Source: Candidatus Thalassarchaeaceae archaeon (GTDB lineage Archaea > Thermoplasmatota > Poseidoniia > Poseidoniales > Thalassarchaeaceae). Taken from it: a stretch of 32,000 bases of DNA. Under the pieces are notes generated by a model that ran no database searches, was not told the DNA's origin, and saw nothing but the letters and a program-made list of their open reading frames with translations. The stretch lies in contig JBJLBP010000001.1 in assembly GCA_045568075.1 (NCBI GenBank), forward strand, positions 270,001-302,000, written 5' to 3'. This document shows, piece after piece, positions 2,764 to 30,604 of this stretch; position 1 is the stretch's first letter, and each line of letters begins with the position of its first letter. The position numbers were made by a program, and so were the translations under genes.

Positions 2764-5700
2764 GTGGTCGGAATGAACAAAGAGATACAGACTTGGTATG
2801 GTCGAGAAAATAGGAAGAAGAGCACGTCAGCCCTGATGATGGTAGTGCTGATGCTACTGAGCACACAGATGTACAATTTCATCGGTGCTGAAGAGGCTGA
2901 AACCAGCCTTGAGGGGCCGGAAGAAACTCCTGCTCGGACTGCTTACCAGCAGTTCTACCAGAGTGGCGGAGCTAGTGCAGGCGAGACTCAAGGCCAGCCG
3001 GCTTCGACCGCTGACTTCCAGCACCCAGCCTTCTCTGATGCGAATTGGGTCGATCCAGCCTCATACCAAGGCAAGATCTCCGACCCCTCCATTCTCCTGA
3101 CCGACCCAGGATACGGATTCCACCTTGAGGAGACCAATACCGAAGACCACGACAATGATGGAATCAATGATCTCGATGACCTCGATGACGACAATGATGG
3201 AATCAGCGATCTCATCGAGCGCTTCGACGGATGCTATGGAACCGATCCATTCGACCACGATAACGACGGAATCGATGACGAGAGTGATTGGGATGACGAT
3301 AACGATGGAATCCTAGAGGGCCCTATTGACTACTCACAAGGCTCCGATCCTTGGAATGTCAGTGCCGACCGTTACGTCATGCCGAATGTAGTTCATCCAT
3401 GGACTGGAACTCCGGTTGGCACCGGTTACCGAATCGATCAGAATCTGATGGATCACGATAACGATGGCGTCACCGATGAAGACATCGATGGCAGTGGGCG
3501 TGGCTCCTACGATGAGGACGACGACAACGACGCTCGCATCGATCAATTCACTTGGCCATGCGATTTCGATGGTGACGGAGCTCAGGATTACTTCGACGAC
3601 GACGACGATAACGACGGCGTCGTAGATCTCTGGGACTCACACCCTTGGGATGCCTCAATTACCACTAACATCACCGCCACAGCACCTCTTTGGGATGATT
3701 GGTATCAGTGGGTGTCTGCTGAGACTCATGATATCGAAATCAGCCCAGGAAACTTGTTCTCTCCTCGAGCATTAACCATCAATGAGGGCGATACTGTTGT
3801 ATGGACCAACGCTGATTCTCAAGATCACACAGTGACATCAGATATCGGCCTCTTCGACAGCGGTACCATCGTTCCTGGCGCAAGCTTCACATTCACCTTT
3901 GACAATGCAGGGACATTCAGCTATGTTTGCAATATCCATCCGGCTATGACTGGCACAATCACAGTTCAGTCAACGAGTGGTTCCGACAATACTTACTCCG
4001 AATATATCGGCGGTGTCGACTATGTTTCGATGGAAGCAAATGTGTGGCACCCTAGAAATCAATCCTTTACCGAAGTTGTCGATGGTGATCTCGACGGTGA
4101 TGGAATCCCGAACTTCCTTGATCCTGACAACGATAACGACGGAACACCTGACTCAGCCGATACTGATGATGACAACGATGGCTTACTCGACATGTACGAT
4201 GTCGACGACGACAATGATGGAATATGGGATGAATGCATGCAACTCGATACAAACTCGGATGGCGAAGGCGATTATCCAAATTCCTTCGATATCCAAACTC
4301 CTGGGCGTGATTGTGAGATTGATTACGACAGGGACGCGGACGATGATCGATTTCGTCCAATTGATATGGATTACGATTTGGTATGGGATTGGATGGATCC
4401 AGACATGGGAGCACTTGAACTCGATGAGCTCGACAACCCGAATGGCGCTCCTCGGAACGATCCGGATGACGAGCCCTACGATCTAGACAATGATGGCGTC
4501 CTAAACGAAGCAGACCCGTACATGCTTGCTACAGAGGAGCAAGTCAGTGAGTGGGACTGCGCCACTCAGACTAACCCCAATCCACAGAATTCCGACATGA
4601 ATTGCACCGTCGCACGTAAGTCGTACACCGGAAATAATGACTGGGATGGTGACGGTCTGAATAACTGGGAGGACCGTGATGATGATAACGACGGAATCCT
4701 CGATTGGCTAGATATTGATCCGAATTGTGATTTCGACGATGACAATGATTTGCATCTACTCAATGGTTCCCGCTTCCGTGACGATGGCCCGAATGACATC
4801 GATACCGATGTTGACGGGGATGGTTTGGCGAACGACGAGGATTGGGACGACGATAACGATGGAATATCAGATTACTACGACCCCGATGACGGAAACTGTG
4901 GAGTGGTCGACCAAGACCAGACCGACCCCTTCGCGACATATTATGGATACTCACACGGTGATGGAGACATAATCGACGGTTCAGACGACAGCGACCTTTG
5001 GGCACAATTCGAGAATACGCACTGGAAGATGTGGTGGCACTTCAATCCGTTCACAGAGGAAAATGGATTCATCTATCCTCACAATGGCTACGACGATTCT
5101 ACCGTGCCTCTGACAAATGGGCAGATTCCTGAGATGTATTGGTATGTCCTCATGCATTGGAGCCCTTGGAATGGAGCTAATTATTTCGATATTGACGTAG
5201 ACGGCGATTCACTTCAGAATGGAATCGACGTCGATTCGGATGGAGATGGACTTCCCGATTGGTGGGATCAAGATGAAGGGAATGATGGAGTTCTGGATGT
5301 TAATGATCCAGGCCAAGGAGGCTCATTCGACAATAACGAGTGTGGTTACACATTTTGGTGGCTTCTAATCGCCCAACAAGCCATTGAGCAAGCATGTGGA
5401 CTGCCGTACGCCTGGCTTTACGGTTACCCTGTTATTCCGGCCAGTCGGACGAACGGAATGTCATTCACTATTCCCTATTCCAGCCGACCCGATGCAGATA
5501 TGGACCAAGGGGCTTACAATGGAACCAATTCACAAGGTCAGTGGACCTGTGAGACTCAATGTTGGCATTTCGATTTCTTAGGTCAAGGTGATGCTGGACC
5601 GAGCGCGGCTGTAAATTACAACCAGATGAAGGATAATCGGGATTTGTATACCGCTTGGGTCGGAATCACTTTCGGATTCTTCCAATGGACTGCTGACAGT

Positions 5701-8700
5701 AATGCCAATTTATTCCCCGATGAAGTCGCTGATTTATTGAATAATGATGTTGATCCCGATGACGATTGTGGCGCTCCCATTCCAGGAAATTTAAATCCTC
5801 AATGTATGGTGAATGACACAGCAGATTTGGATGATGATTTCGACGGAGTCTACGATCATTGGGATGTCGACGACGATAACGATGGAATCTGGGATTATTT
5901 CGAAATCGACAGTAATGACGATCTCGACGACGACGCCAATATCGATGCCTCGAATTTCTTTACCGGCACAAATTGTGATGACAATGACGACGATGGAACC
6001 GACACGGATCCAGACGACGACGGTTGGTACCAAGCCGTCTGGGACAAAGGTGTGTTAGGACAGGGACTCCTATTCCCTGTGTACTACGATGTCGACAATG
6101 ATAACGACGGAGTCCCTGATGGAGAAGACCCGGATGACGATAACAATGGAGTTTCCGACGCATTACAAGAAACTCTTTGCTTCGTCGGTGAAGAACAGAG
6201 TGTTTGGGATCATGATAACGACGGTATCCTTGACTGGGCTGATGACGACTGGGACGCCGATGGATTGGTCAATACTCTTGAGTTGAATACAGCCACACCG
6301 TTCATCTCTCCATGGGATCATGATAACGACGGATTGAGAGATGACATCGATCTCGACGACGATTCGGACGGTATGCTGGATAAGGACGAGATTATGCTAT
6401 GGCCATCTCGCTTCGGTCAGGAATCAACAAACCCGTGGGACCACGACGATTACGGAAATGGAACAGGTCCCGCTAACCCCTCTGATCCATTCACCGGTCC
6501 GGACGCGATTGACGAGGATGATGACAACGACGAGAGGCCCGATCGCGATTGGGACCATCTCGAAGAGGACTGGTCGAATTCCTCAGATTGGGATAGCGAT
6601 AACGACGGAATCCTTGACGAGGATGACAAGGTGCCTACGAGAATCAATCTCACGAGCGCTAACGTCCTCTGGCTCGATGCTGTAAATCCAGCCGTTTTCC
6701 GTGGTACTGTGAACTGGCTCGACCCTGATACAGGCGTCTTCGAGCCAGCTCCAGACCTGCCGGTTCAGATTTCTATCGAATGGGCTCGAAATGGCACCCT
6801 TGCCCTCGAGACCGTCGATGTTCTGACCGATGCGGCTGGAGCTTTCGTAGTCGGACAATTCCTCTTGCCAGAGGATCTCATTGTAGGTCCTAACACGACT
6901 TACAATGTCTACGCGGAAGTCACAGAAATGTTCTATCACGACGGTTCACAGACCGAACCGATACCTGTAGAAGTTCGCGCCAATACATCGATTGACTACG
7001 TCGCATGGACATACTTCCGCAGCGATGAGCAACCACTCTTCACAGATTACAAGGTGCATTATGAGGCTGATTGGGATCGAGGAATCTTCGACAATCGAAT
7101 TCCTAACGCACCAGTCTCCTTCCGCGTTCACGGCGGACCATTCGGCAACCACACCCACCCGACCATCTTCGATGGATACGGCTACGGTTACCGCGCCGAT
7201 TCAGGTGGATGGGTCTCACTAACCTTCGTCCAAACCGCCGGCGCACAGGGTCAGTGGAAGCAGGTTCAGTGGAATTCAACCATGGATAATGGCGTTGGCA
7301 AGCTACCAGGCGGCTACGAAGAAATCGTCTGGGATGACAATGCGAAAGATCACTTCGTCCTCGGACGTTATGACTACACAAACACCAGTTTGCCGATTGG
7401 TGATTATGCATTCATTGGTTTCGCCCGCCCCGACTTGGGCGATGAATGGCCATTCCCATACCTTGAGCAGTCCGAGACAGAAGCGTTTGCTATCCGCTCG
7501 ATGCACCGAATGTACATCGAAGCTGACATGTTTACGCCATCGACTCGGCCGGTTTACTTCTGGGACACCACACAGTTCACTGGATCGTCCTTCGGAGCGT
7601 GGAGGGCTCTCTTCCACCAACCAAGTCTTGACACCGCTGGCCTCGCCTACGAAGACGTAAGCCTCGGCAAGCCGTATGCGATGACTTGGGATGGAACTCC
7701 TGAGGGACTAACTGGAGAGAGTTCCCGACTACGTCCGTTCCTCTCTTCGAACGGAACTCATTGGCGTATCGGCATGCAGAACGGTGGCGACTTCAATGTG
7801 CCACCTTGCGGACCAGTCGACCCGGTTGATCCGAATAGTGACGTTCGCTGCGAGATTATCCCTGAGATGTTTACCGGAGAGACTCTGAGAGTCATCGGAA
7901 GCGTTTGGAATCGGACTTTGGTTCCATGGCCGCATGACCCGATGACGCTACAGGTCGATCTCGATCGTAATGGAATCTTCGCGGGCTCGCAAGAGACTGG
8001 ATACGCTCGAGCACCACAGATGGTGAACGGTGTCGCGACTTTCGATTACAACTGGACCTGGTATTCTCAATATGCAGCAGGTCACTACGGAATACGTGCT
8101 GACTTCACCAACTCGAACTACTACTTCACAGGAAACCAGAGTTCGGTCCTCGCTCCTACGGGCGCTTACCTCAATGTCTCAGTCATTGGAACAACCGAGT
8201 TCAAGGAATTGCTTGAACCGCGCCTATATCGTGGCCAAAATCGCACAATCGAGGTTCAGTTGCTTGATAATTCGTTGCAGCCGCTGAAGAATTCTCAGAT
8301 TAATTATGTTTGGAGTGCGGATGGCACCAATGGCATCGCTGAGACTGACGGAACGGGTTGGTTCTCGGTCAATCTAACGATTGAGAAGGATCACAATCTG
8401 GGCAACTTCACCCTCTCTTACAACTACCCAGGTGATCCTCGCCACCAAGGAACCTCTGGAACGATGGATCTCTGGGTTGTCTCACGCACTTACATCACAC
8501 TGCAAGGTACAACCCCGAACATACGCTCCAATGGAGATATCTGGGAATTCTCAGCACAGGTGACAGATGACAATCGCACAGCCATCATCAAGGATTCCGG
8601 ACAGGCTTTGGACGGATGTGGTGAGAATGGCGGAGAAGTTCTCCTGATTATGGAAGGAACCGACTTCGACGATCGAACCCATAGACAAATCGTCGAGACC

Positions 8701-10740
8701 CTATGTCCGAACGCAGGAAACATCCACCACGAGATGGTGTTGGATCCACAACTCCTGCGCGACGACCCGCAATCCTTCCTACCGGATGGATTCGGTCCAG
8801 TAAACGTCGTATTGCGCTTCGAGGAGAACCTACCTCACGAGGGCTGTGAACCACTCGACGCAGATGCGATGAGCACTTCCGGCGCATGGGACCCATGCGC
8901 CCAGATGGTGAACAGCGATCACTTCCGCAGAGTCATGCAGTTCCAAGTCGATGGGTTCAGCCTCATCGGCCGAACAGTTCTCAACGTCGACGATCAGATT
9001 GTTTACACTTCTGAAATCGATCCATCGACCGGACAGCCAATCGAGAAGCCCATGGTCGTCACCGGCCAGCTCGTTGACGAACTCGGATCTAACCTCTCTA
9101 ACCGCGCTGTGCGCGTAACATACGAGATGGTCGGCTCTGAGACGGGAATCGTGGGTTGTCTACCAGGAACCTCAAACATGGACGGATTCTTCGAGATCAC
9201 CTGCCCGCTTTCCGGCGTTCAGGCGGGACAAGCCCGAGTGAAGGTCGAGTTCAATTCATACGAGAATAACGACCGCTACCGCTACCACAATGCAAGCGTA
9301 ACACGACTGTTCCCGGTCTTCTCGAACTCGACTATGCACCTGCAAGAAATTGGTCCGTTCCGAAATGACATCGATTCGTACACCTTCCAGAATGGCTCGG
9401 TTTTCCCGGTGCTGTATCTCAAGGAGTCATTCCACCTCGATGCTAGGTTAACTCAGACGAATGGTAATCCGATTGGCGGTAAGTGCCTGAACATCTACCT
9501 CGATCCTGAGGTTAACACTCGGCCAATCGCCACTTCGATTACGCGTGACGGAACTGGTGAAATCGAGTGGTTCAGCGGTGACCCGGAAGACAATCCCAGT
9601 CGCCGAGGAGTCGAACCGACATCTGAGATGATGGAAGGATTCAGAGTAGTTAGAATCGCATACGAACCGACTAAGGAATTACCTGGCGGATGTCGTGCCG
9701 AGACAACTCCGGTTGTCAATGGTTCCTTCATCGATATCGAAGTCCTCGTCAGGAGCCGCGTTGACATCCTACTGAAGAACCACTGGTCAAATCCAGATGG
9801 ATATCAGGAAGGAGATTGGATCAACGGATCGGTCGCAATTCTGCGCGACCGACTCGACCTCGCGGTCGAGCACCAAACGGTGATCTTCACCTACCAGTAT
9901 TGGAATGCCGAGGAAGGCATGTGGCTTCCACACAACGTGGTCTACGCTACTACGAACGAATTGGGTGTGGCATCGTTTAGCTTCGAATACTCGGGTGAAA
10001 ATATACCTGGAGAACTCGAATGTAGCCAGGCCGGTTATTGTATCGACGAAGGAAGATGGCAAGTCATAATCCACTTCAAGGGCTCACACGAGTTTGAAGA
10101 GGAATATCTCAACAATACGCCTGAAATCTATCTTGGTGAATTAGTCGCGAAGGGCGATACGAGCTTCTTCACGGTGCAGGTATTGACGATTCTAGGAATC
10201 GCAATGGCCTTCGCTCTGATGGTCGGCGCAATCATGTATCGCAATTACATTGAGCGCCGACGCATCGAGATTCTGCGCGGAATACTCACCGACTCGCTAA
10301 TGTCGCTAAAGGCGTCGAACGAATACATCGACACCATCTTCAACTGCTACAAGGAATTAGTACGATTCTTCCGCAGTCGAGGCGCGATGAAGAAGGTCTA
10401 CGAGACCACGCGAGAATTCGAGGATGCTGTGAGCACAATGCTCAGCGGCATTGCGCCGCCAGAGGATCTCAATGTCTTCTTCTCACTCTTTGAAGAAGCA
10501 AGGTACTCTGACCACGAGATTGGTGCAGACCAGCGAGACCGAGCCATCGGTGCGCTGCAGTCCATCATCAACCACATCAGTGCCTCTTTGGGCGAAGGAA
10601 TGCTAAACCGAACCACTGCTAATGAGTCCGGCCTTTACGGCTCAGTCATCAAGGCTGGCTCGTTCGTTGACTCCGAGGGTCAAGAGCGCATCGCCGGAAT
10701 CGATGACGGTTCAGACGGCGACGGCGGCTTCCGAATCTGA
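2764..10740 (+). CDS. Giant secreted, C-terminally membrane-anchored surface protein with Asp-rich Ca-binding-type repeats, a cupredoxin domain, Ig-like beta modules, a TM helix and a DUF4129-like tail
   Basis: Uninterrupted 2658-codon ORF. AGGAG at 2751-2755 lies 8 nt upstream of GTG 2764, and an alternative ATG lies at 2773. The N-terminus has a Sec-type signal (RENRKK, then a hydrophobic core, then IGA/EE). About 30 DxDxDGxxD motifs follow, then many N-x-S/T sequons. A single C-terminal TM helix is followed by a positively charged stretch. Confidence 0.9.
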   Translation: MVGMNKEIQTWYGRENRKKSTSALMMVVLMLLSTQMYNFIGAEEAETSLEGPEETPARTAYQQFYQSGGASAGETQGQPASTADFQHPAFSDANWVDPASYQGKISDPSILLTDPGYGFHLEETNTEDHDNDGINDLDDLDDDNDGISDLIERFDGCYGTDPFDHDNDGIDDESDWDDDNDGILEGPIDYSQGSDPWNVSADRYVMPNVVHPWTGTPVGTGYRIDQNLMDHDNDGVTDEDIDGSGRGSYDEDDDNDARIDQFTWPCDFDGDGAQDYFDDDDDNDGVVDLWDSHPWDASITTNITATAPLWDDWYQWVSAETHDIEISPGNLFSPRALTINEGDTVVWTNADSQDHTVTSDIGLFDSGTIVPGASFTFTFDNAGTFSYVCNIHPAMTGTITVQSTSGSDNTYSEYIGGVDYVSMEANVWHPRNQSFTEVVDGDLDGDGIPNFLDPDNDNDGTPDSADTDDDNDGLLDMYDVDDDNDGIWDECMQLDTNSDGEGDYPNSFDIQTPGRDCEIDYDRDADDDRFRPIDMDYDLVWDWMDPDMGALELDELDNPNGAPRNDPDDEPYDLDNDGVLNEADPYMLATEEQVSEWDCATQTNPNPQNSDMNCTVARKSYTGNNDWDGDGLNNWEDRDDDNDGILDWLDIDPNCDFDDDNDLHLLNGSRFRDDGPNDIDTDVDGDGLANDEDWDDDNDGISDYYDPDDGNCGVVDQDQTDPFATYYGYSHGDGDIIDGSDDSDLWAQFENTHWKMWWHFNPFTEENGFIYPHNGYDDSTVPLTNGQIPEMYWYVLMHWSPWNGANYFDIDVDGDSLQNGIDVDSDGDGLPDWWDQDEGNDGVLDVNDPGQGGSFDNNECGYTFWWLLIAQQAIEQACGLPYAWLYGYPVIPASRTNGMSFTIPYSSRPDADMDQGAYNGTNSQGQWTCETQCWHFDFLGQGDAGPSAAVNYNQMKDNRDLYTAWVGITFGFFQWTADSNANLFPDEVADLLNNDVDPDDDCGAPIPGNLNPQCMVNDTADLDDDFDGVYDHWDVDDDNDGIWDYFEIDSNDDLDDDANIDASNFFTGTNCDDNDDDGTDTDPDDDGWYQAVWDKGVLGQGLLFPVYYDVDNDNDGVPDGEDPDDDNNGVSDALQETLCFVGEEQSVWDHDNDGILDWADDDWDADGLVNTLELNTATPFISPWDHDNDGLRDDIDLDDDSDGMLDKDEIMLWPSRFGQESTNPWDHDDYGNGTGPANPSDPFTGPDAIDEDDDNDERPDRDWDHLEEDWSNSSDWDSDNDGILDEDDKVPTRINLTSANVLWLDAVNPAVFRGTVNWLDPDTGVFEPAPDLPVQISIEWARNGTLALETVDVLTDAAGAFVVGQFLLPEDLIVGPNTTYNVYAEVTEMFYHDGSQTEPIPVEVRANTSIDYVAWTYFRSDEQPLFTDYKVHYEADWDRGIFDNRIPNAPVSFRVHGGPFGNHTHPTIFDGYGYGYRADSGGWVSLTFVQTAGAQGQWKQVQWNSTMDNGVGKLPGGYEEIVWDDNAKDHFVLGRYDYTNTSLPIGDYAFIGFARPDLGDEWPFPYLEQSETEAFAIRSMHRMYIEADMFTPSTRPVYFWDTTQFTGSSFGAWRALFHQPSLDTAGLAYEDVSLGKPYAMTWDGTPEGLTGESSRLRPFLSSNGTHWRIGMQNGGDFNVPPCGPVDPVDPNSDVRCEIIPEMFTGETLRVIGSVWNRTLVPWPHDPMTLQVDLDRNGIFAGSQETGYARAPQMVNGVATFDYNWTWYSQYAAGHYGIRADFTNSNYYFTGNQSSVLAPTGAYLNVSVIGTTEFKELLEPRLYRGQNRTIEVQLLDNSLQPLKNSQINYVWSADGTNGIAETDGTGWFSVNLTIEKDHNLGNFTLSYNYPGDPRHQGTSGTMDLWVVSRTYITLQGTTPNIRSNGDIWEFSAQVTDDNRTAIIKDSGQALDGCGENGGEVLLIMEGTDFDDRTHRQIVETLCPNAGNIHHEMVLDPQLLRDDPQSFLPDGFGPVNVVLRFEENLPHEGCEPLDADAMSTSGAWDPCAQMVNSDHFRRVMQFQVDGFSLIGRTVLNVDDQIVYTSEIDPSTGQPIEKPMVVTGQLVDELGSNLSNRAVRVTYEMVGSETGIVGCLPGTSNMDGFFEITCPLSGVQAGQARVKVEFNSYENNDRYRYHNASVTRLFPVFSNSTMHLQEIGPFRNDIDSYTFQNGSVFPVLYLKESFHLDARLTQTNGNPIGGKCLNIYLDPEVNTRPIATSITRDGTGEIEWFSGDPEDNPSRRGVEPTSEMMEGFRVVRIAYEPTKELPGGCRAETTPVVNGSFIDIEVLVRSRVDILLKNHWSNPDGYQEGDWINGSVAILRDRLDLAVEHQTVIFTYQYWNAEEGMWLPHNVVYATTNELGVASFSFEYSGENIPGELECSQAGYCIDEGRWQVIIHFKGSHEFEEEYLNNTPEIYLGELVAKGDTSFFTVQVLTILGIAMAFALMVGAIMYRNYIERRRIEILRGILTDSLMSLKASNEYIDTIFNCYKELVRFFRSRGAMKKVYETTREFEDAVSTMLSGIAPPEDLNVFFSLFEEARYSDHEIGADQRDRAIGALQSIINHISASLGEGMLNRTTANESGLYGSVIKAGSFVDSEGQERIAGIDDGSDGDGGFRI
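3145..6627 (+). repeat. Array of about 30 thrombospondin type-3-like / EF-hand-like Asp repeats (coding), with a recurring nucleotide core GAYGAYGAYAAYGAYGGAATC
   Basis: Recurrent peptide (W/x)D(D/H)DNDG(I/V/L)xDxxD. Examples are DDDNDGISD, DHDNDGIDD, DDDNDGILD, DDDNDGIWD, DHDNDGILD and DSDNDGILD. Near-identical DNA cores occur near 3186, 3294, 4206, 4681, 4849, 5871, 6214, 6314 and 6594. Confidence 0.85.
3727..3969 (+). other. Type-1 (blue) copper cupredoxin domain embedded in the giant protein
   Basis: HDIEISPGNLFSPRALTINEGDTVVWTNADSQDHTVTSD...GTFSYVCNIHPAMTGTITVQ. Candidate Cu ligands are His (codon 3826-3828), Cys (3928-3930), His (3937-3939) and Met (3946-3948). The spacing is C-x2-H-x2-M. 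Confidence 0.8.
10165..10737 (+). other. C-terminal TM anchor (10165-10236) plus a cytoplasmic tail of roughly 165 aa resembling DUF4129
   Basis: FFTVQVLTILGIAMAFALMVGAIM is followed by YRNYIERRRIE (positive-inside). The tail contains TTREFEDAV...FFSLFEEARYSDHEIG, which resembles the DUF4129 pattern (TxxE ... YExARYS). Confidence 0.6.
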
Positions 10741-12605: not shown

Positions 12606-14774
12606 ATGGTCCCGGAGGGCTCGGATGATTGGGCGAACAGCGCCCGGATTGAGGAGCTGGCAGGACTCCTCGCACACCATTCTAACCTCTACTACAATGA
12701 GGCCGCTCCAGAGATTCCCGACGCCGAATATGACTTACTCTTCGACGAATTGAAGCAACTATCACCCGATCACCCACAACTAACCAAGGTAGGTTCGGAC
12801 CCCGCACCAGGATCTGTGAAGGTTGACCACTTGTTCCCAATGCGCAGTCTCGATAAGGCAACTGAGGCCGAGGAAGTCATCCATTTTGTTGCAGAAACCA
12901 CTGCTCACGGCCGCCGCTTTGTCTGCCAACCCAAACTCGACGGTTCAGCCCTATCGCTGGAATACCGTCGAGGCCGTCTAGTCCGTGCGGCCACGCGCGG
13001 AAATGGTGAGCGTGGCGAAGATGTCACAGCAAACGCTCGCCGAATCTCAAACATTCCAGAACAACTTGCTTGGGATGGTGATGCCCACGTACGAGGAGAA
13101 GTGGTGATGCCACTCGATATTTTCCGCTCGAAATACGCAAACATCGCCCCAAATCCGCGCAATCTCGCATCCGGCAGCTTACGGCAGAAGAGTGCCGATG
13201 CCGGCAAAGGAGACGCAGCTGACCTCGTATTCCACGCCTATGATGTGATGTTCCCCGAACTTGCCGACCGACACCCTGACAGCCCCTCTCCACCAGATTT
13301 CACCTTCGACTCGCAAGAGATCGATTGGTTGGTTGCAAACGGTATCGAAGTGGCTGGCAACGATGTGGTCGAAGGCGATGACGATGAGGCCGTTACAAAT
13401 GGAATTCTCGATGTCACTCAGCGCTGGACTGAGCACCGAGAAAACGCCTCGTGGGAGATCGACGGAGTCGTCATCAAACTAGATGACCTTGCAAAGCGAA
13501 GTCTCCTCGGCCAGACCGCACATCATCCTCGATGGGCACTAGCGTGGAAATTCCCTCCCGAGGAGGCATCGACAGTTCTGCTAGGAGTCGATTGGCAGAC
13601 AGGTCGGACCGGCACGGTCACCCCTGTGGCGAGAGTCGCACCGGTAACAGTCTCCGGCGTAACTGTCGAAAACACGACACTGCACAACGCCGGAGAGATT
13701 GAAAGATTGGGAATCAGCATCGGCGACAGAGTCCGAATTGTCCGTAGAGGCGATGTGATTCCCAAAATAATCGAGGTTCTCGGGCCCGCAGACCAAACTG
13801 ACCTCGACAATAGATTCCGTGCGGATGGTACTGCCTTCAGCGACCCGCTACCGCTACGCCAAGCCGTCCCAATTCCTCACGAATGCCCACGATGTGGCAC
13901 ACAACTGAAGCAGGACGGTGCCTTCATCCGCTGCTTCAACCTTGATTGCCCATCGCGCCTAGAGCGTGCAATTCTCTACTGGTGTCGAGCGCTTGAGATG
14001 GACGGCATCGGAGAGAAACTCGCAGAACAACTCTGTGAGGAAGGCCTCGTCAAGAGCTTGCCCGATCTCTACGCACTGACTCACTCAGATCTCGTAGGCC
14101 TCGAGCGCATGGGTGAGAAATCAGCAGCCAATGTCGTCACTCAACTAGATTCAACCCGCTCGCTCAACCTCTCATCCTTCCTCTCAGCCCTAGGATTGCC
14201 TGGAATAGGCCCAGAATTAGCAAGTGCCTTCGCACGTGAAGTAGGAGAAGCAACCACTCTGTTTGACTTGTTAGCCGAACCGGAGGAAGCCATCCCACGA
14301 CTGGTCACAATCGATGGCGTAGGAGAAACAGTAGCACGCTCATTCCTCGAAGGCTTAGATGAACGCAAGAGCGTCGTCGAAGGATTGGTGGACGTCCTCC
14401 TAATCGAAGCAGAACAAGTGATCGAAGAGGCGGACGGCCCTCTCACTGGTCAGACATTCTGTATCACAGGCACCCTAGGCCGTCCGCGAAAAGAAATCGC
14501 TCTGATGATCAAAGCAGCAGGAGGGAAAGTTGTCTCAACAGTCTCTGGCAAGCTCGACCACCTCGTCGCCGGAAACTCGGCTGGCTCCAAGTTGGACAAG
14601 GCGAATAGGCTCTCAGTCAACGTCCTCAGCGAAATTGACCTTGAAGCCATGCTCGCCGGCGAATCAACTCTAGACGATGGAAGCGTCGACGAAGCGGAAG
14701 GAGAAATTGTCGCCGACGCCGGCCCACAGCAGATGTCCCTCGGCGACTACGGTTCGTCGGAACCAGTAGAATAG
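12606..14774 (+). CDS. ligA: NAD+-dependent DNA ligase LigA (bacterial type)
   Basis: 722-aa ORF. It has the N-terminal Ia-domain pattern LLAHHSNLYYNEAAPEIPDAEYDLLFDEL and the adenylation motif CQPKLDGSA (KxDG). It also has the Zn finger CPRCG...CFNLDCP, HhH repeats and a BRCT domain (LTGQTFCITGTL...GGKVVSTVSGKLDHLVAG). The C-terminal tail is acidic. Confidence 0.93.
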   Translation: MVPEGSDDWANSARIEELAGLLAHHSNLYYNEAAPEIPDAEYDLLFDELKQLSPDHPQLTKVGSDPAPGSVKVDHLFPMRSLDKATEAEEVIHFVAETTAHGRRFVCQPKLDGSALSLEYRRGRLVRAATRGNGERGEDVTANARRISNIPEQLAWDGDAHVRGEVVMPLDIFRSKYANIAPNPRNLASGSLRQKSADAGKGDAADLVFHAYDVMFPELADRHPDSPSPPDFTFDSQEIDWLVANGIEVAGNDVVEGDDDEAVTNGILDVTQRWTEHRENASWEIDGVVIKLDDLAKRSLLGQTAHHPRWALAWKFPPEEASTVLLGVDWQTGRTGTVTPVARVAPVTVSGVTVENTTLHNAGEIERLGISIGDRVRIVRRGDVIPKIIEVLGPADQTDLDNRFRADGTAFSDPLPLRQAVPIPHECPRCGTQLKQDGAFIRCFNLDCPSRLERAILYWCRALEMDGIGEKLAEQLCEEGLVKSLPDLYALTHSDLVGLERMGEKSAANVVTQLDSTRSLNLSSFLSALGLPGIGPELASAFAREVGEATTLFDLLAEPEEAIPRLVTIDGVGETVARSFLEGLDERKSVVEGLVDVLLIEAEQVIEEADGPLTGQTFCITGTLGRPRKEIALMIKAAGGKVVSTVSGKLDHLVAGNSAGSKLDKANRLSVNVLSEIDLEAMLAGESTLDDGSVDEAEGEIVADAGPQQMSLGDYGSSEPVE

Positions 14775-15863: not shown

Positions 15864-16673
15864 TCAACCGTACATCGCAGAACTCTCACCGCCAGAGTTC
15901 TCATTCTGCATTTGATTCAGTTGGACAGCCATCATCTCGCGGATTTGCTCCTCAATTCGCTGAGCCTCCTTGAGTAGCGGCTCAGGATCCAATTTGATTG
16001 CCGGCAGCAAGCCATCAAGCCGCCCAATAATCCGCGCAGCTGCCCGAGCGTCTGGAATCGCTCCGTTAGCCAAGTCATCACCCGACTCAGCAAGAATTGC
16101 CATTGCATCGATACGACGACGTCGACACTCACCGAGCATGACACCAGTCATGCCCCCCACAACTCCGTGTTTCAGCATTGGAACTTCCAATTCGCCGAGT
16201 TTTTCATGAGCAGAATCAGTCGAACCGATACCAAGCATCGACTCGGTCGAATCATCATCATCAAAGATTGAGTGAGCTTGATCAGGGCCATGTGAATATG
16301 AGTCAATCATCATCATCTGACTCGCCCCATTTGCCTCTACCCAATCTAAGATTGAATCAGCAAGAGGCAAACTCAATTCCGAAGCAACTTGAATCTCCGA
16401 AGCAATCAGCACAACCTTGTCACATCTATCCATGTGGCATATCGGCTCACCCGCATAGAATCGAAGGGGAGGCAGAGGCTTGCCCTCCTGCACCAAACAA
16501 ACCGGAGGCAGGCCTGCGCCTCTGGCACCGCCTACGAAGCTTAGCCCCAAACGGTCGACAAGATAGTGAGCAACGATGCTACTAACAAATCCAGCCGACG
16601 GAAAACAGGTCACTACAAGTGCATCTTCTACGTTCAAACTCTCGTCGACCGCGACCACAGGGGCTCCACTCAT
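15864..16673 (-). CDS. PAC2-family proteasome assembly chaperone homologue (PbaA/PbaB-like) with a C-terminal HbYX motif
   Basis: The ORF is open to 16799 (311 aa). The paralogue at 22166 aligns best from Met at 16673 (MSGAPVVAV...VVTCFPSAGFVSSIVAHYLVDRLGL). The upstream extension is antisense to the neighbouring nuclease ORF. The C-terminus ends ...SSAMYG (hydrophobic-Tyr-X). Confidence 0.7.
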   Translation of the reverse strand: MSGAPVVAVDESLNVEDALVVTCFPSAGFVSSIVAHYLVDRLGLSFVGGARGAGLPPVCLVQEGKPLPPLRFYAGEPICHMDRCDKVVLIASEIQVASELSLPLADSILDWVEANGASQMMMIDSYSHGPDQAHSIFDDDDSTESMLGIGSTDSAHEKLGELEVPMLKHGVVGGMTGVMLGECRRRRIDAMAILAESGDDLANGAIPDARAAARIIGRLDGLLPAIKLDPEPLLKEAQRIEEQIREMMAVQLNQMQNENSGGESSAMYG

Positions 16674-16692
16674 GTGTACGGAACAGACCGAG

Positions 16693-18018
16693 ATGCTGTT
16701 AATCATTGGCCCCCACAGACAGCCCGTGTCTGAGGCAGAGGCAGAGGATTTGGCGGCGCAAGATACTCCATCCGAGGCAAAGCCCGAGGACGGTTTCATC
16801 GCTCATCAACTCTCACCATCTTCGTGGAACCGCTACGAAGAATGCCCCCGCAAATACTGGCTCTCGCGCCAAGGACTCCCGCGCAAGGCGAGTATGCCAG
16901 CAGCGATGGGAAATGCAGTGCATAATTCGGTTGAGGACCTCTGCAATCTAGATCTCACTGGCCGCGATGAAGATGAGTCCGGATGGCTTCCGGCCACTGC
17001 CAAGGCCGTCCTCGACCGACACTGGCAGATAGAGAAGGACAACTTCCTCGAAACCCCTCGCCATCCTCGTTGGAAGGGAGAACAGATTACCAAGGCTCAC
17101 GATGGATTGATCGGCGCTCTAAACATCCTCTTCAGTAAATCAAATATCGATGTTCAGAATCTCTCGGAAGTTACAGTTGGGACTTGGAGAGAGGTACAAT
17201 CGATTGTTTTGGCAAACGAGGGGACTCTTGTCTCCGAGTGCGGCCGGATGATGGGTCGGCTGGATCTATTAGTTGCCGATTTGGATGAAAACGGGGAATC
17301 TCGTGGCTGGATTGTCGCCGACCTCAAAACTGGCCGCCCACCATCTCCAATGTTGAATGAGAAGGTCAGTAGACAGTTGCGATTCTATCGCGACTTGCTG
17401 AAGCAGAACAACCCGAATCATCCCCCTGTGGTCGCTGAGGGTTGGTATTCGGCCAATCAGACAGTGCATCAAGCCGATGGGCCGGATGTGCTTGAGGCAG
17501 CGCTTGAGGCGTGGGAAGGAATGCGCCCCTCCACCACACCTCTGCCGGCGAATCCCGGTGAGCAGCAATGCGGCTGGTGTGAATGGAAGGCATGGTGTCC
17601 AATTTGGTGGGCTGCTCGCCGAGATGGACTTCTTTCGCCAGGGCACATGTTCCGCGATGAGGTGGTTCAGGTGGTGCGCTTCGACCGTGAGGCAGGAGCC
17701 GCGCTTTTCCAGCGTATGCCGCCTGTCGGAGAGGAGGGTGAATTGGCACCCTCGGACCACAAATTTGGTGCTGTGATTCGTGACCAAGCCCTAACCCAAT
17801 TATCCGAATTGCTCGACTCTGGTCACGAGGGTGCCATATTCATTGGTAGCGCACGGATGGATGGCCGCGTGGCTCATCTTGGGGATTGGTGCGAAGTGAT
17901 TCCTTGGAGTCCAATGAATGAGGGTCACGCGCGCGATCACTCGCGCTGGCTGCGTAGCAATTCTGACACAGTCTTCGATGGAATCGGCGAAGATGGCGAG
18001 GCAAGCCAGTCCAAGTAG
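16693..18018 (+). CDS. Cas4-like PD-(D/E)XK nuclease with a four-Cys Fe-S cluster motif and an extra C-terminal domain of about 130 aa
   Basis: The motifs are SPSSWNRYEECPRKYWL (first Cys), GRLDLLVAD ... ADLKTGR (D...D-x-K), QLRFY (QxxxY) and CGWCEWKAWC (C-x2-C-x5-C, nt 17569-17598). The ORF is open from 16576. The start is uncertain: ATG 16672, ATG 16693 or an in-frame TTG further downstream. Confidence 0.75.
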   Translation: MLLIIGPHRQPVSEAEAEDLAAQDTPSEAKPEDGFIAHQLSPSSWNRYEECPRKYWLSRQGLPRKASMPAAMGNAVHNSVEDLCNLDLTGRDEDESGWLPATAKAVLDRHWQIEKDNFLETPRHPRWKGEQITKAHDGLIGALNILFSKSNIDVQNLSEVTVGTWREVQSIVLANEGTLVSECGRMMGRLDLLVADLDENGESRGWIVADLKTGRPPSPMLNEKVSRQLRFYRDLLKQNNPNHPPVVAEGWYSANQTVHQADGPDVLEAALEAWEGMRPSTTPLPANPGEQQCGWCEWKAWCPIWWAARRDGLLSPGHMFRDEVVQVVRFDREAGAALFQRMPPVGEEGELAPSDHKFGAVIRDQALTQLSELLDSGHEGAIFIGSARMDGRVAHLGDWCEVIPWSPMNEGHARDHSRWLRSNSDTVFDGIGEDGEASQSK

Positions 18019-22165: not shown

Positions 22166-22936
22166 ATGGTCGAACACGGCAGCTCAGGTTACCCTCTGGT
22201 CCTGCACTCCGCAGCGGACCCCACTAGGCTCGGTGGTACCGCCATTTGTGGATTCTCTACAGTCGGTTCTGTAGGGGTAATTGCGATGTCGCATATCATC
22301 CAAACGATGGGTCTTCACCCGATGGGAACGGTGCTCCATCCAGAGTTTCCTGCTATCGCACTCATCCACGATTCAGTCCCTAAGCACCCCGTTCGCGTCT
22401 ACCAAGGCGAAGGAATGGGCGTTTTCATCGCCGAAATTCAATTTCCGCCACAGAATGATGTGCACTTTGGAGAGACGGTTCTAGAATGGTTCACCAAAGG
22501 AGGGTTCGACCGTTTGATTGTCATCGACGGCGTCGTTAGCAATGATTTGGGAATCAAGGAGGAGAGCGACCTCTGGGGAGTCTCTTCGACTGCGATCGGT
22601 CGTGATGCGCTTGACGATTCTGGGATTCGGCGGATTCAGCAAGGAATTGTCTCAGGAATTTCTGGTTATCTGATTGCAGAAGGTGAGCGGCGCGGGCTCG
22701 ATGTCACCGCTCTTCTTGCTGAGTGTAATCCAATGTATCCAGATGCGCGTGCCGCTCTTCTCGCAATCGAAGGCGTTGCCGACTTACTCGACATGGAGAT
22801 TCCAGTTCAAGGTCTGCTAGAGGATGCTCGGGCCATCGAGGAACGTGTGCGCGAAGCTTTCGAGCGGGCTCAGGCGAATGCTCTACCAGCACCCGATGAT
22901 GATCGCGACGACGATGAAGTCAGAATGGTATACTGA
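22166..22936 (+). CDS. PAC2-family proteasome assembly chaperone homologue (second paralogue)
   Basis: 256-aa ORF. AICGFSTVGSVGVIAMSHIIQTMGL... parallels the first paralogue. The C-terminal tail is acidic and ends DDDEVRMVY, with Tyr as the last residue rather than the penultimate one. Confidence 0.7.
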   Translation: MVEHGSSGYPLVLHSAADPTRLGGTAICGFSTVGSVGVIAMSHIIQTMGLHPMGTVLHPEFPAIALIHDSVPKHPVRVYQGEGMGVFIAEIQFPPQNDVHFGETVLEWFTKGGFDRLIVIDGVVSNDLGIKEESDLWGVSSTAIGRDALDDSGIRRIQQGIVSGISGYLIAEGERRGLDVTALLAECNPMYPDARAALLAIEGVADLLDMEIPVQGLLEDARAIEERVREAFERAQANALPAPDDDRDDDEVRMVY

Positions 22937-27505: not shown

Positions 27506-30500
27506 ATGAGCGTGAGATACACCATGTTAGACAAGAAAATGATTGCAATGCTGATGACTCTCAGTATGCTTGCGGCTGCGTTCGCAGGCTGTCTGGGTGG
27601 GGAAGATGAGGACGATGACTGGACTCTGATGCCAGCTGACGATGTGTCGGCTGACTTCGTGACTTCAGACTGGGACCCAATCATCCCCAATTTGAACGAC
27701 GGCGAGATGTGCGATGCCATTATCTCGGCGATGACGAAGACGGAGGAGCGCGACCAAGTCGTCGACTTCACTCGTGGTTACTACACAAGTAGCCAGGGTG
27801 TAATCGGTGCGGCTGGATCCGCAGCTATCTCGGACGTCTCGGACCTGAATGCGGCTGGTACAACCGTCGCTGTTCAATCCGGAACGACCTCTGACCTCTA
27901 TGCCCAAGACAATCTTGCGGCCGCGACAATTGTTGCGTACGGAGATTTCCCCTCGGTCATAGCGGCAGTCGGAAACGGTGAGGCGGACTACGCCATGGGT
28001 GATTCACCTGTGCTCGCGCTGTCTGGCGACCTGATGACGACTTTCTCAGATGAGACCTTCGGACTCGCAGTCCGTGAGGACTCGGGCGAATTGCTCGATG
28101 CCCTCAATGTCGCAATCACTGCGATTGTTGACTCTGGCGAGTACGATGCCATCTTTGGCGCTTGGTTCGACGGAGCTGTCGTCCTCACGGATGACCGCAA
28201 TGACGACACCGCGACCTCGTACCCAACCCCAAGTGAGGGTTCAACCCTCTCTGCGGTTCTCGAGTCCGGTTCGCTCATGTTGTGCTCTGACACTGCTTAC
28301 CCGCCGTTCGAGAGCCTCGATGAGGACGGTAACGCTGTTGGATTCGACGTTGACGTCGCAAACGCGCTTGTCGATGAGATCGCTGCTCACTACATGGGTA
28401 ACGATAACCCAGTATTCGTAGCTCCAGTATCAGAATCAATGAAGATTGGTATGCTAAACCCAATGACTGGTCCAATCGCAGTCTATGCACCTCCGTTCAC
28501 GGTGTCTGCACAGATGGCAATTGACGACCTCAATGCAATGGGCGGAAACTTCGAGCTTGTAGAGGCTGACTCGGGCTGTGACGGTACTGTCGCAGCAACA
28601 GCAGCACAGGCTCTTGTCGACGCTGGTGTTGTAGGTGTCGCTGGTGCAGCATGTTCCGGTGCTTCAATGGGTGCTAACGCAGTACTCAGTGCAGCAGGAG
28701 TTGTACAGGTGTCATACGCAAGTACTAACCCTGGTCTTTCTGACTCTGCTGCTTACCCACACTTCTACCGTGTGGTTCCAAGCGATGCAATTCAGGGACC
28801 CGCCATGTCTGACATGGTGGGCGCTACTGGCGCGGCCAACCCGGCTCTGCTGCACATGACCAACGACTACGGTTCTGGTCTAGCAGACGCCTTCGCGGAC
28901 GCTTGGGGTGGGGAGGAATTCCTTTGCACCAAGATCGGATACGCGGATGACCAAACAGACTTCGCAGCAGAAGTACAGGCCATCGCCGACGCTGGTTGCG
29001 ACTCGGTGGTCATGGTGACTTACTCTGCAGATGGTGCTGCTATCCTTGAGACAATGGCCTACCTCGGCCTAGCTCTGCCAACTTTCGGCGCTGACGGAAT
29101 TGCAGACGGAGCCTTCTTGGAAGACTTTTCAGCCCCTGCTGCTGCTAACGGTGTCCAAGCTACTAAGCCTCGAGCAGGCTCTAGTGCTGGAGACTTCGTA
29201 GAGCGCTGTGCTGCAGATGCAGACTGTGCTGGTGGTATCTACACTGCTGAGACATACGACGCAGTAATGATGATTGGAAAGGCCGCTATGATGGAAGACG
29301 GCGCTAACATGCCCACACACATGGGAATGGTCGGCACTGACTACCAAGGAGCATCAGGAGTACACACTTTCGATGCTGCAGGCGACGTCGCAGGTGCAGG
29401 TTACGATATTTGCAGCTTCGATGCGCTATCAAGCACAGATGTCTTCTTCAGCTGCCGAGCTTACTGGACCCGTGACGGTGGAGTCGCTGCAAGCGAGTTC
29501 ACTGGCGCGACCGTCAAGGTTGGTTTCCTTAACCCAATGACAGGTCCAATTGCTGTCTACGCACCGGGCTTCGGAGTTGCGGCAAACGTCGCTCTTGGAA
29601 TGATGAACATCGCAGGCTGGGGATCCGGCCTACAGTTCGAAATGGTCATGGCCGATTCAGGCTGTGATGGAACTGCAGCAGCTGCTGCAGCCCAGACTCT
29701 AGTAGATGCTGGAGTTATTGGTGTAGTTGGAGCAGCATGTTCTGGTGCTACAATGGCCGCTAACGCTGTTCTCAGCGCAGCCGGAATCCCAATGATCTCG
29801 TACGCAAGTACTAACCCAGGTCTAAGTGATGCAACAGCATATCCACACTTCTTCCGTGTGGTTCCAAGCGATGCGATTCAGGGCCCTGCTCTAGCTGATG
29901 TAGTCACTGCAGGTGGCTCCAGCAACATCGCACTTCTGCACATGACCAACGACTACGGTTCAGGTCTTGCAGATTCGTTCGACGCTGCTTGGACGGATGC
30001 AGGTAACACACTCTGCACCAAGATAGGCTATGCTGACACCGATACCGACTTTACCTCTCAGGTTCAGTCAGTTGTCGATGGTGGCTGTGACAGTGTAATG
30101 TTGATTTCGTACGCTGCAGATGGTGCTGCAATCGTTGAGGAGTTATCTGCTCAAGGATTCGCTGGTGCAATCTACGGTGGAGATGGAGTTGCTGAAGAGG
30201 GACTTTGTGCCTCTATGGCAGACAACTCAATCTGTGACGGAATAGTTGCTACCAAGCCAGCATCTGCTACACCTAACGAGCGCTCGATGGCTTTCGCCGC
30301 AATTTGTGGCGATATTCCAGACTGTGCTGGTGGTATCTACACCGCTGAGGCATTCGATGCTATGATCATCATGGGATACGCGTACTTCGCAGGCGCATCT
30401 GCACCTGCTGGTACCTCAATGACCCAGTTGATTGCAGCAACAGGCCAAGGCTTCGTTGGTGCTAGTGGTGTCCACAGCTTCGATGCTGCTGGAGATGTAG

Positions 30501-30604
30501 CCGGTAACGGATACTGCGTCGGTACGTTCAACGTCGACGCGGGCGCTGTGTCGTTCGACTGCGACCGATTCTGGTCGCGCGACGCCGGCGTGCAAAACGC
30601 GTGA
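27506..30604 (+). CDS. Triple-domain ABC substrate-binding lipoprotein: PBP2 (polar amino-acid type) domain plus two tandem LivK-like PBP1 domains
   Basis: 1032-aa ORF. The signal plus lipobox-like sequence is MLMTLSMLAAAFAGC. The SBP_bac_3-like segment is DWDPIIPNLNDGEMCDAIISAMTKTEERDQVVDFTRGYY...AWFDG. Two LivK-like units each start K(I/V)G(M/F)LNPMTGPIAVYAP and contain ADSGCDG...GAACSGA...SYASTNPGLSD..YPHF(Y/F)RVVPSD. Confidence 0.88.
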   Translation: MSVRYTMLDKKMIAMLMTLSMLAAAFAGCLGGEDEDDDWTLMPADDVSADFVTSDWDPIIPNLNDGEMCDAIISAMTKTEERDQVVDFTRGYYTSSQGVIGAAGSAAISDVSDLNAAGTTVAVQSGTTSDLYAQDNLAAATIVAYGDFPSVIAAVGNGEADYAMGDSPVLALSGDLMTTFSDETFGLAVREDSGELLDALNVAITAIVDSGEYDAIFGAWFDGAVVLTDDRNDDTATSYPTPSEGSTLSAVLESGSLMLCSDTAYPPFESLDEDGNAVGFDVDVANALVDEIAAHYMGNDNPVFVAPVSESMKIGMLNPMTGPIAVYAPPFTVSAQMAIDDLNAMGGNFELVEADSGCDGTVAATAAQALVDAGVVGVAGAACSGASMGANAVLSAAGVVQVSYASTNPGLSDSAAYPHFYRVVPSDAIQGPAMSDMVGATGAANPALLHMTNDYGSGLADAFADAWGGEEFLCTKIGYADDQTDFAAEVQAIADAGCDSVVMVTYSADGAAILETMAYLGLALPTFGADGIADGAFLEDFSAPAAANGVQATKPRAGSSAGDFVERCAADADCAGGIYTAETYDAVMMIGKAAMMEDGANMPTHMGMVGTDYQGASGVHTFDAAGDVAGAGYDICSFDALSSTDVFFSCRAYWTRDGGVAASEFTGATVKVGFLNPMTGPIAVYAPGFGVAANVALGMMNIAGWGSGLQFEMVMADSGCDGTAAAAAAQTLVDAGVIGVVGAACSGATMAANAVLSAAGIPMISYASTNPGLSDATAYPHFFRVVPSDAIQGPALADVVTAGGSSNIALLHMTNDYGSGLADSFDAAWTDAGNTLCTKIGYADTDTDFTSQVQSVVDGGCDSVMLISYAADGAAIVEELSAQGFAGAIYGGDGVAEEGLCASMADNSICDGIVATKPASATPNERSMAFAAICGDIPDCAGGIYTAEAFDAMIIMGYAYFAGASAPAGTSMTQLIAATGQGFVGASGVHSFDAAGDVAGNGYCVGTFNVDAGAVSFDCDRFWSRDAGVQNA
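28442..30601 (+). repeat. Intragenic tandem duplication (two LivK-like units of about 1.08 kb each)
   Basis: Unit 1 starts at AAG 28442 and unit 2 at AAG 29516, an offset of 1074 nt. Later anchors are offset by 1086 nt (TACGCAAGTACTAACCC at 28715 vs 29801; CACATGACCAACGACTACGG at 28853 vs 29939), implying a 12-nt indel. The stretch CCACACTTCTxCCGTGTGGTTCCAAGCGATGCxATTCAGGG is nearly identical in both units. Confidence 0.9.

Follow-up and report, generated by a model that had tools for sequence, protein, structure and literature searches.

Among the described systems closest to the domain reported here, amicyanin (Paracoccus denitrificans and P. versutus; 1aac and 1id2) combines a Greek-key fold and four copper ligands with the shortest ligand loop known, C-x2-H-x2-M, and is a free periplasmic protein of about 105 amino acids (aa) that serves methylamine dehydrogenase and belongs to the mau cluster. 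Halocyanin-type carriers are small, membrane-tethered, stand-alone proteins that usually have a twin-arginine signal. In the Nitrosopumilus maritimus multicopper oxidase/NirK-like protein 9cck and in the Thermus scotoductus NirK 6hbe, a terminal, tethered cupredoxin feeds a catalytic copper center in the same polypeptide. Here we describe a cupredoxin domain that lies inside a giant surface protein encoded in a stretch of 32,000 nucleotides (nt) from Candidatus Thalassarchaeaceae archaeon (assembly GCA_045568075.1, contig JBJLBP010000001.1, positions 270,001 to 302,000), called the window throughout. This domain is very probably a genuine cupredoxin with a complete type-1 ligand set. On balance, we favor its being a lineage-specific accessory that probably binds copper and has a redox role, and not the core function of the giant protein.

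The domain spans aa 322-402 of the giant protein (window positions 3727-3969, plus strand) and translates to HDIEISPGNLFSPRALTINEGDTVVWTNADSQDHTVTSDIGLFDSGTIVPGASFTFTFDNAGTFSYVCNIHPAMTGTITVQ. The original prediction had placed a blue copper domain in this segment; the segment was found there, and its cupredoxin identity was borne out by Pfam, by solved structures in the PDB, and by AlphaFold2 combined with Foldseek. On the segment, the Pfam profiles Copper-bind (PF00127) and Cupredoxin_1 (PF13473) scored 37.8 bits (cut-off 21.2) and 37.2 bits (cut-off 27), respectively, and both also passed on the whole protein. The best match in a sequence search of solved structures was the C-terminal cupredoxin of 9cck (E value of 4.5e-19), with further matches to the N. 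maritimus cupredoxin 5fc9 (6e-10), to many amicyanins (approximately 1e-7), and to plastocyanins. The four canonical type-1 ligands that had been proposed, H355, C389, H392, and M395, do sit in the ligand columns of the family and align with those of amicyanin and 9cck. The N-terminal ligand H355 is found in the motif DHTVTS (codon at 3826-3828, plus strand), and the remaining three are found in the loop C389-N-I-H392-P-A-M395 (3928-3948, plus strand; codons at 3928-3930 for C389, 3937-3939 for H392, and 3946-3948 for M395). This loop, CNIHPAM, aligned without gaps with the amicyanin loop C-x-x-H-P-F-M, which upholds the amicyanin-type C-x2-H-x2-M spacing. When 63 small homologues were aligned, neither the first His nor the Cys varied, and the second His and the Met were at least 90% conserved.

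The AlphaFold2 model of the domain, built on the alignment of these 63 homologues, has seven strands, a predicted local distance difference test score (pLDDT) of 93.4, and a predicted template modeling score (pTM) of 0.85. Foldseek matched this model with a probability of 1.00 to the Greek-key β-sandwiches of amicyanins, plastocyanins, and pseudoazurins, at template modeling (TM) scores of 0.7 to 0.8, with 0.77 to 0.80 reached against amicyanins and plastocyanins, and the model superimposes on amicyanin 2idq with a root mean square deviation of 1.2 Å across 85 columns.

The comparison with amicyanin itself shows agreement in the Greek-key fold, in all four ligands, and in the short loop, with TM scores of 0.72 to 0.80 but an identity of only 25 to 28%. 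The residue that follows the first His ligand is Thr in the window domain (HTVT) and Asn in amicyanin. Moreover, amicyanin is a free periplasmic protein, whereas the window domain is an internal module of an archaeal protein of 2658 aa, and no mau or dehydrogenase genes were found among the genes annotated across the 32-kb window. The domain is thus not an amicyanin in the strict sense, given that it has neither a free form nor a mau context. The likeness is closer to 9cck, which is the best match in both sequence and structure (38% identity) and in which the cupredoxin is likewise tethered to a larger extracytoplasmic protein; both 9cck and 6hbe share with the window domain the pattern HTVT...C-x2-H-P-x-M. 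In contrast to these proteins, where the tethered domain is terminal and supplies a catalytic copper center, the window cupredoxin is internal, and its host has no detectable catalytic redox domain. The giant protein also differs from the halocyanin-type carriers, both in its size and in its N terminus, where the twin-arginine motif is absent (RKK, with no RR).

The gene for the giant surface protein occupies positions 2764-10740 on the plus strand, an open reading frame (ORF) of 2658 aa and 297 kDa. The placement of the domain between Asp-repeat blocks of a protein of about 290 kDa, as had been suggested, was confirmed, in a portion that is predicted to be extracellular. The N terminus resembles a signal peptide (aa 17-45, 2812-2898, plus strand), with RKK followed by ALMMVVLMLLSTQMYNFIGA and then by an acidic stretch. 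It is conserved in the orthologues, and we infer from its sequence that the protein is exported by the Sec route and cleaved. Next comes the first Asp-rich repeat block (aa 121-300, 3124-3663, plus strand), which is 29% Asp, contains five exact motifs with a period of 13 residues (39 nt), and is near-invariant among the orthologues. The second block (aa 442-1330, 4087-6753, plus strand) is 23% Asp and has 17 exact motifs dispersed among nonrepeat segments. All in all, 22 exact DxDx[DN]Gxx[DN]xx[DE] motifs were counted in the protein, 5 before the cupredoxin and 17 after it, and the cupredoxin occupies a gap of 486 nt that separates the runs of Asp-codon repeats with the 39-nt period. Since the Pfam profile TSP_3 gave no match to the repeats even at E≤1, where strong compositional bias may suppress profile scores, it is the motif that suggests calcium binding, and the label of adhesin is likewise a putative one. 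Sequence searches of solved structures with the repeat block and the stalk returned no significant match.

Downstream of the repeats, an ectodomain of serial β-sandwich domains (aa 1331-2465, 6754-10158, plus strand) was recognized with AlphaFold2 and Foldseek. Its model is nearly all β-strand, with a pLDDT of 82.7 and a pTM of 0.42, a low value of the kind expected for beads on a string. Foldseek matched the model to chains of macroglobulin-type β-sandwich domains and to the N. maritimus surface layer (S-layer) protein 8c8m, all with low TM scores, and the Pfam families Big_1 and CarboxypepD_reg scored under their cut-offs. The ectodomain carries 22 of the 34 N-x-S/T sequons of the giant protein. 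Another sequon, N-I-T at aa 302-304 (3667-3675), lies about 20 residues upstream of the cupredoxin and is invariant in carriers of both cassette types described below, which makes it a candidate N-glycosylation site at the domain boundary. A hydropathy scan identified the sole strong transmembrane helix at aa 2468-2492 (10165-10239, plus strand), and a Pfam profile match placed a DUF4129 domain (PF13559) at aa 2528-2598 (10345-10557, plus strand), in the predicted cytoplasmic tail. Against this profile (cut-off 24.8 bits), the whole protein scored 27.6 bits and the tail scored 32.3 bits; the tail is kept in all orthologues, whether the cupredoxin is present or not.

The topology that emerges would comprise a Sec-type signal peptide, an ectodomain made of Asp-rich, calcium-type repeats and a stalk of about ten β-sandwich domains, one C-terminal membrane helix, and the cytoplasmic DUF4129 tail. 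The cupredoxin would be outside the cell, in the portion of the chain furthest from the membrane anchor. Approximately 2070 residues separate the domain from the membrane helix, so that, of the two settings offered by the original prediction, a module held away from the cell fits better than one that serves a partner on the envelope. In Marine Group II archaea, the giant protein is possibly part of the envelope or of the S-layer, to judge from the resemblances of the stalk, the signal peptide, the sequons, the anchor at the C terminus, and the status of the gene as a core gene. These archaea are the most abundant planktonic archaea of ocean surface waters, and “thrombospondin genes,” widespread in Poseidoniales, have been cited as pointing to adhesion (PMC6461757).

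The relatives that match the giant protein over its full length number more than 250, and some of them are named in their sources as Thalassarchaeaceae, Poseidoniaceae, or Poseidoniales (Marine Group II archaea). The 120 best orthologues are 2503 to 2714 aa long and 50 to 100% identical to the window protein. The gene order SPOUT methyltransferase - giant gene - L18e - L13 - S9 was constant in the 24 loci checked and identical in the genomes of both cassette types, which shows that the relatives are true orthologues of a core gene. A word-indexed search with the domain alone missed the giant proteins, and the census of the domain was therefore built on the whole-protein orthologue clusters, the best 120 of which were searched with it. 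The domain was missing from 104 of them, present with all four ligands in 8, and present with ligands lost in another 8. The conservation of the ligands among homologous giant proteins, which the original prediction had set in advance as its own test, was thus found within one cassette form only, type A, to which the window domain belongs. In the alignment of the N-terminal 700 residues, the flanks “...HPW-D.S....NIT...W” and “YS.Y.GGVDYV” join directly in the orthologues that lack the domain. Because the flanks adjoin in this manner, the cupredoxin reads as a clean insertion of about 90 aa into the linker between the two Asp-rich blocks. Since the domain is absent from most orthologues and many of the others are copper-less, copper cannot be required for the function that is conserved in the giant protein.

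The carriers all fall within one subclade of Thalassarchaeaceae in a neighbor-joining tree of the C-terminal 2150 residues, and several members of this subclade lack the domain. Metagenome contigs retrieved through the conserved upstream flank and low-specificity Asp patterns added at least 22 orthologue loci, 17 of which were classified: among the matches listed, 11 were without the domain, 2 had an intact type A cassette, and 4 had the other form, type B. In one further locus (L018 10001-10411, from the metagenome-assembled genome [MAG] MGIIb-O1-LRMED-021), the cupredoxin region contains in-frame stops or a frameshift, which reflects either an assembly error or a pseudogenized insert. A second lineage-specific insertion, of about 100 aa (“GG.NY...L.VDI.A.AG.VT.V.I...G.GY..GD.VTI.GG”), was observed in the Poseidoniaceae orthologues P0059, P0101, and P0117, some 170 aa past the cupredoxin site toward the C terminus (approximately position 4270 in the numbering of the window). 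This shows that the N-terminal region of the giant protein accepts more than one kind of module.

Alignment of the insert region (equivalent to positions 3650-4080 of the window) separated the two cassette forms. Type A has the C-x2-H-x2-M loop and a short linker. In type B, “YSDP” takes the place of the loop, so that Asp stands where type A has Cys; both the second His and the Met are lost, and an additional linker, “PETSQxLPxAF,” is present. Six of the eight ligand-less carriers have this form (P0004, P0005, P0013, P0016, P0017, and P0019), and it was also seen at the loci L085, L086, L091, L093, L095, and L108. Type B occupies the same insertion point as type A, with homologous flanks and a homologous β-strand core, and the closest relatives of the type B domains are type A domains. 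Independent losses of ligands were also detected within type A, in P0007 (His to Gln, with the Met lost) and in P0014.

Within type A, the copper site is well kept. The set analyzed comprised 30 distinct sequences, gathered from the protein clusters and from the species representatives of GTDB, and 28 of these keep all of H, C, H, and M, down to a pairwise identity of about 50%. The four ligand columns, which are conserved at 100%, 97%, 93%, and 93% in the order in which they occur, are among the most conserved columns of the domain, whose core averages 69%. The patterns used to scan GTDB, derived from an alignment of type A sequences only, contained the first His ligand, and that sample is consequently unusable for the frequency of ligand loss. 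The ratio of nonsynonymous to synonymous substitution rates (dN/dS, Nei-Gojobori method, close pairs) ranged from 0.02 to 0.32 for the domain, with a median of approximately 0.11, and from 0.01 to 0.11 for the flanks. Given the retention of the ligands in 28 sequences and the dN/dS of about 0.1, the copper site is under purifying selection within type A. At 60 to 62% identity, the window domain is as close to unrelated small cupredoxins and to a second cupredoxin of Poseidoniales as it is to distant type A orthologues.

The tree of the insert disagrees with that of the remaining protein. On the former, type B forms a single clade; on the latter, its members are dispersed, and no proteins lie nearer to the window protein than the type B proteins P0004 and P0005. 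Along the sequences, the identity between P0001 and P0004 is 87 to 95% before the insert, 32 to 52% inside it, and 78 to 82% after it. This pattern fits either an exchange of cassettes by recombination or an old polymorphism. The proportion of synonymous differences (pS) between the window gene and the type B genes is 0.7 to 1.0, which is saturated, so that recombination and rapid divergence are not separable by synonymous distance, and it is the incongruence of the trees that argues for cassette exchange.

With its ligands intact and purifying selection acting in the window lineage, the type A domain most likely binds one copper ion after Sec export and can carry single electrons at the cell surface, handing them to, or taking them from, something in the envelope or beyond the cell. 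In this respect, it may be likened to the tethered cupredoxins of copper nitrite reductases, of multicopper oxidases, and of membrane-anchored poly-cupredoxins. The module appears to be evolutionarily labile, being mostly absent, present as type B in other orthologues, and decayed twice within type A. Several observations weigh against a redox accessory. Copper-less type B persists at the same position in many lineages, which makes a copper-independent role of the fold possible, and the dN of the domain is 2 to 5 times that of the flanks. No other redox domain was recognized in the giant protein, which has no CxxCH heme motif and no further Pfam matches. The original prediction had proposed a redox center serving a partner, but no redox-partner gene is present among the neighbors in the window. 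The distance of the domain from the membrane anchor argues against coupling to a respiratory chain, and the trees described above are neighbor-joining trees without support values.

The alternative that survives best is that the domain is a structural spacer with a vestigial copper site, where the fold provides one more β-sandwich bead or a binding surface and the ligands would be functionless remnants of a recent capture. This would account for the retention of type B at the same position in at least 10 sampled lineages, for the two further losses of ligands within type A (P0007 and P0014), for the lack of the whole domain in approximately 87% of the orthologues, and for the weaker constraint on the domain than on its flanks. 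A neutral site would not, however, outlast the divergence seen among the type A sequences, where the ligands are kept down to about half identity and their columns are among the most conserved. The low dN/dS and a sequence near the consensus of functional small cupredoxins also speak against a relic. A spacer is unlikely for the window domain.

A more specific version of the redox accessory can be entertained, with still less confidence than the spacer. The blue copper center would be an ecotype-specific accessory of some Thalassarchaeaceae for extracellular one-electron chemistry at the tip of the giant protein, and its states would recombine and track copper or oxygen. If this were true, the candidate chemistry would be the redox transformation of dissolved metals or of organic substrates on particles, and the three states of the locus (copper-binding, copper-less, and none) would be swapped by recombination, following the availability of copper or oxygen in the ocean. 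We consider this scenario speculative.

Surface copper capture, buffering, or sensing, in which scarce or toxic copper from sea water would be bound and then handed on, or a signal would pass through the membrane helix to the DUF4129 tail, is improbable. The domain is predicted to be exposed at the surface, the host is predicted to cross the membrane once and has a conserved cytoplasmic domain, which would in principle permit signaling, and a polymorphism of presence and absence suits a niche-dependent trait. Surface copper-binding proteins do exist in methanotrophs, namely MopE/CorA, which are not cupredoxins. The chemistry of the site is unfavorable, since type-1 sites hold their copper tightly in a buried and rigid setting and are, to our knowledge, not known for exchange or sensing. 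Moreover, the membrane helix is some 2070 residues away, the DUF4129 tail is conserved regardless of the cupredoxin, and no copper-homeostasis genes are found nearby. Copper sensing had been raised in the original prediction, and the analysis yielded no evidence for it.

An electron shuttle for a respiratory partner in the membrane or envelope, acting in the manner of halocyanin or plastocyanin and feeding a terminal oxidase, corresponds to the second idea of the original prediction and is less probable again. Small blue copper proteins often serve as carriers in aerobic archaea, and the ligand set and fold of the window domain are canonical for type 1. The domain is, however, at the far end of a long ectodomain from the sole strong membrane helix, and no oxidase or bc-type genes are encoded nearby. 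Furthermore, Poseidoniales are aerobic as a whole order, and yet most of their orthologues lack the domain or have it in a copper-less form. A chance motif or an annotation artifact, for which nothing was found, has practically no probability left, being refuted by the highly significant matches to profile hidden Markov models, PDB entries, and folds, by an ORF that is conserved at full length in more than 250 proteins, and by neighboring genes conserved in the 24 loci checked.

The wider family of the domain, which is widespread and has short, amicyanin-like ligand loops, was explored with an exhaustive phmmer search over 1.84 billion cluster representatives. At thresholds of E≤1e-3 and E≤1e-10, the search retrieved 38,418 and 11,026 relatives, respectively. 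The best 150 of the 38,418 (P0241-P0390) are all 279 to 3670 aa long and contain 3 to 12 cupredoxin copies. A few of these poly-cupredoxins were inspected; most have a signal peptide and some have a C-terminal membrane helix. P0241 (1154 aa), for instance, combines eight CxxHxxM sites with both a signal peptide and a membrane helix at the C terminus; P0386 has 3670 aa and 12 cupredoxin copies, in all of which the axial residue is other than Met. These metagenome proteins have domains of the same family as the window domain (40 to 50% identity), likewise within large envelope proteins. They differ in carrying 3 to 12 copies in tandem, which is suggestive of an electron wire, whereas the window protein has a single copy among nonredox repeats. 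The view that cupredoxins are normally small stand-alone carriers, from which the original prediction started, is therefore only partly right, given the many multicopy cupredoxins in large envelope proteins. A literature search found nothing on this class of poly-cupredoxins.

A second cupredoxin was found in Poseidoniales, at the C terminus of a protein with five Bact_surface_Ig-like domains (PF16403; L027 7-1497, plus strand, and L028, ending at 5759). It is 61 to 62% identical to the window domain and has intact H...C-T-P-H-P-G-M ligands. Both cupredoxins occur in the same archaeal order and are fused to surface repeats, but the host protein is different and the position is terminal. This cupredoxin may be a donor or a sibling of the inserted module. 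The closest relatives of the module are about equal, with 62% identity for this second cupredoxin of Poseidoniales and 60% for small cupredoxins on bacterial-looking contigs.

With so many tethered cupredoxins, the window domain exemplifies a wider and under-described architecture and is not a singular oddity. What is new in detail is the single internal cupredoxin between Asp-rich repeats, with copper-binding, copper-less, and empty states. The literature search found no description of the giant protein, of a cupredoxin in Poseidoniales surface proteins, or of the cell surface of Marine Group II. The locus shows that a giant surface protein of this group tolerates the swapping of modules at a defined linker, that one of the modules is a canonical blue copper domain that is selectively maintained where it is present, and that the same locus holds copper-binding, copper-less, and absent forms. 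The cassette type thereby offers a concrete and testable marker of niche differentiation, to be set against copper, oxygen, and depth in ocean metagenomes, and the cupredoxin is a small, expressible domain suited to spectroscopy. In sequence databases, cupredoxins tethered in large envelope proteins abound, and the literature search suggests that they are largely unstudied.

The start of the giant gene was judged against the orthologue P0004. The ORF begins with GTG at 2764, and the likelier start is ATG at 2773 (MNKEIQ...). A minus-strand ORF without a Pfam match (2543-2866) overlaps the GTG start, which favors ATG 2773 or a later codon as the true start. In relatives, an Asp_decarbox (PanD-like) gene is encoded on the minus strand immediately upstream of the giant gene (L085 2417-2821 and L086 2439-2813), which hints that the ORF at 2543-2866 is a decayed or divergent PanD-like gene. 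The nearest species representative in GTDB is the Thalassarchaeaceae MAG UBA8684, with 89% identity in the segment and 96 to 100% in the neighboring genes.

The neighbors of the giant gene in the window are archaeal housekeeping genes, which include Trm1, the L18e-L13-S9 cluster, and two paralogues of the PAC2 family (proteasome assembly chaperone-like; 15864-16799, minus strand, and 22166-22936, plus strand) at most 6 kb apart. An Rfam scan of the window returned no matches. At 12606-14774 on the plus strand, this archaeal genome context includes the gene for LigA, an NAD-dependent DNA ligase of bacterial type with adenylation, OB, HhH, and BRCT domains; in the orthologous loci L085 and L086, the gene has the same position. 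Further downstream, at 27506-30604 on the plus strand, an ORF of 1032 aa fuses an SBP_bac_3 module to two Peripla_BP_6/ANF_receptor solute-binding modules and is unusually big for a multimodule binding protein.

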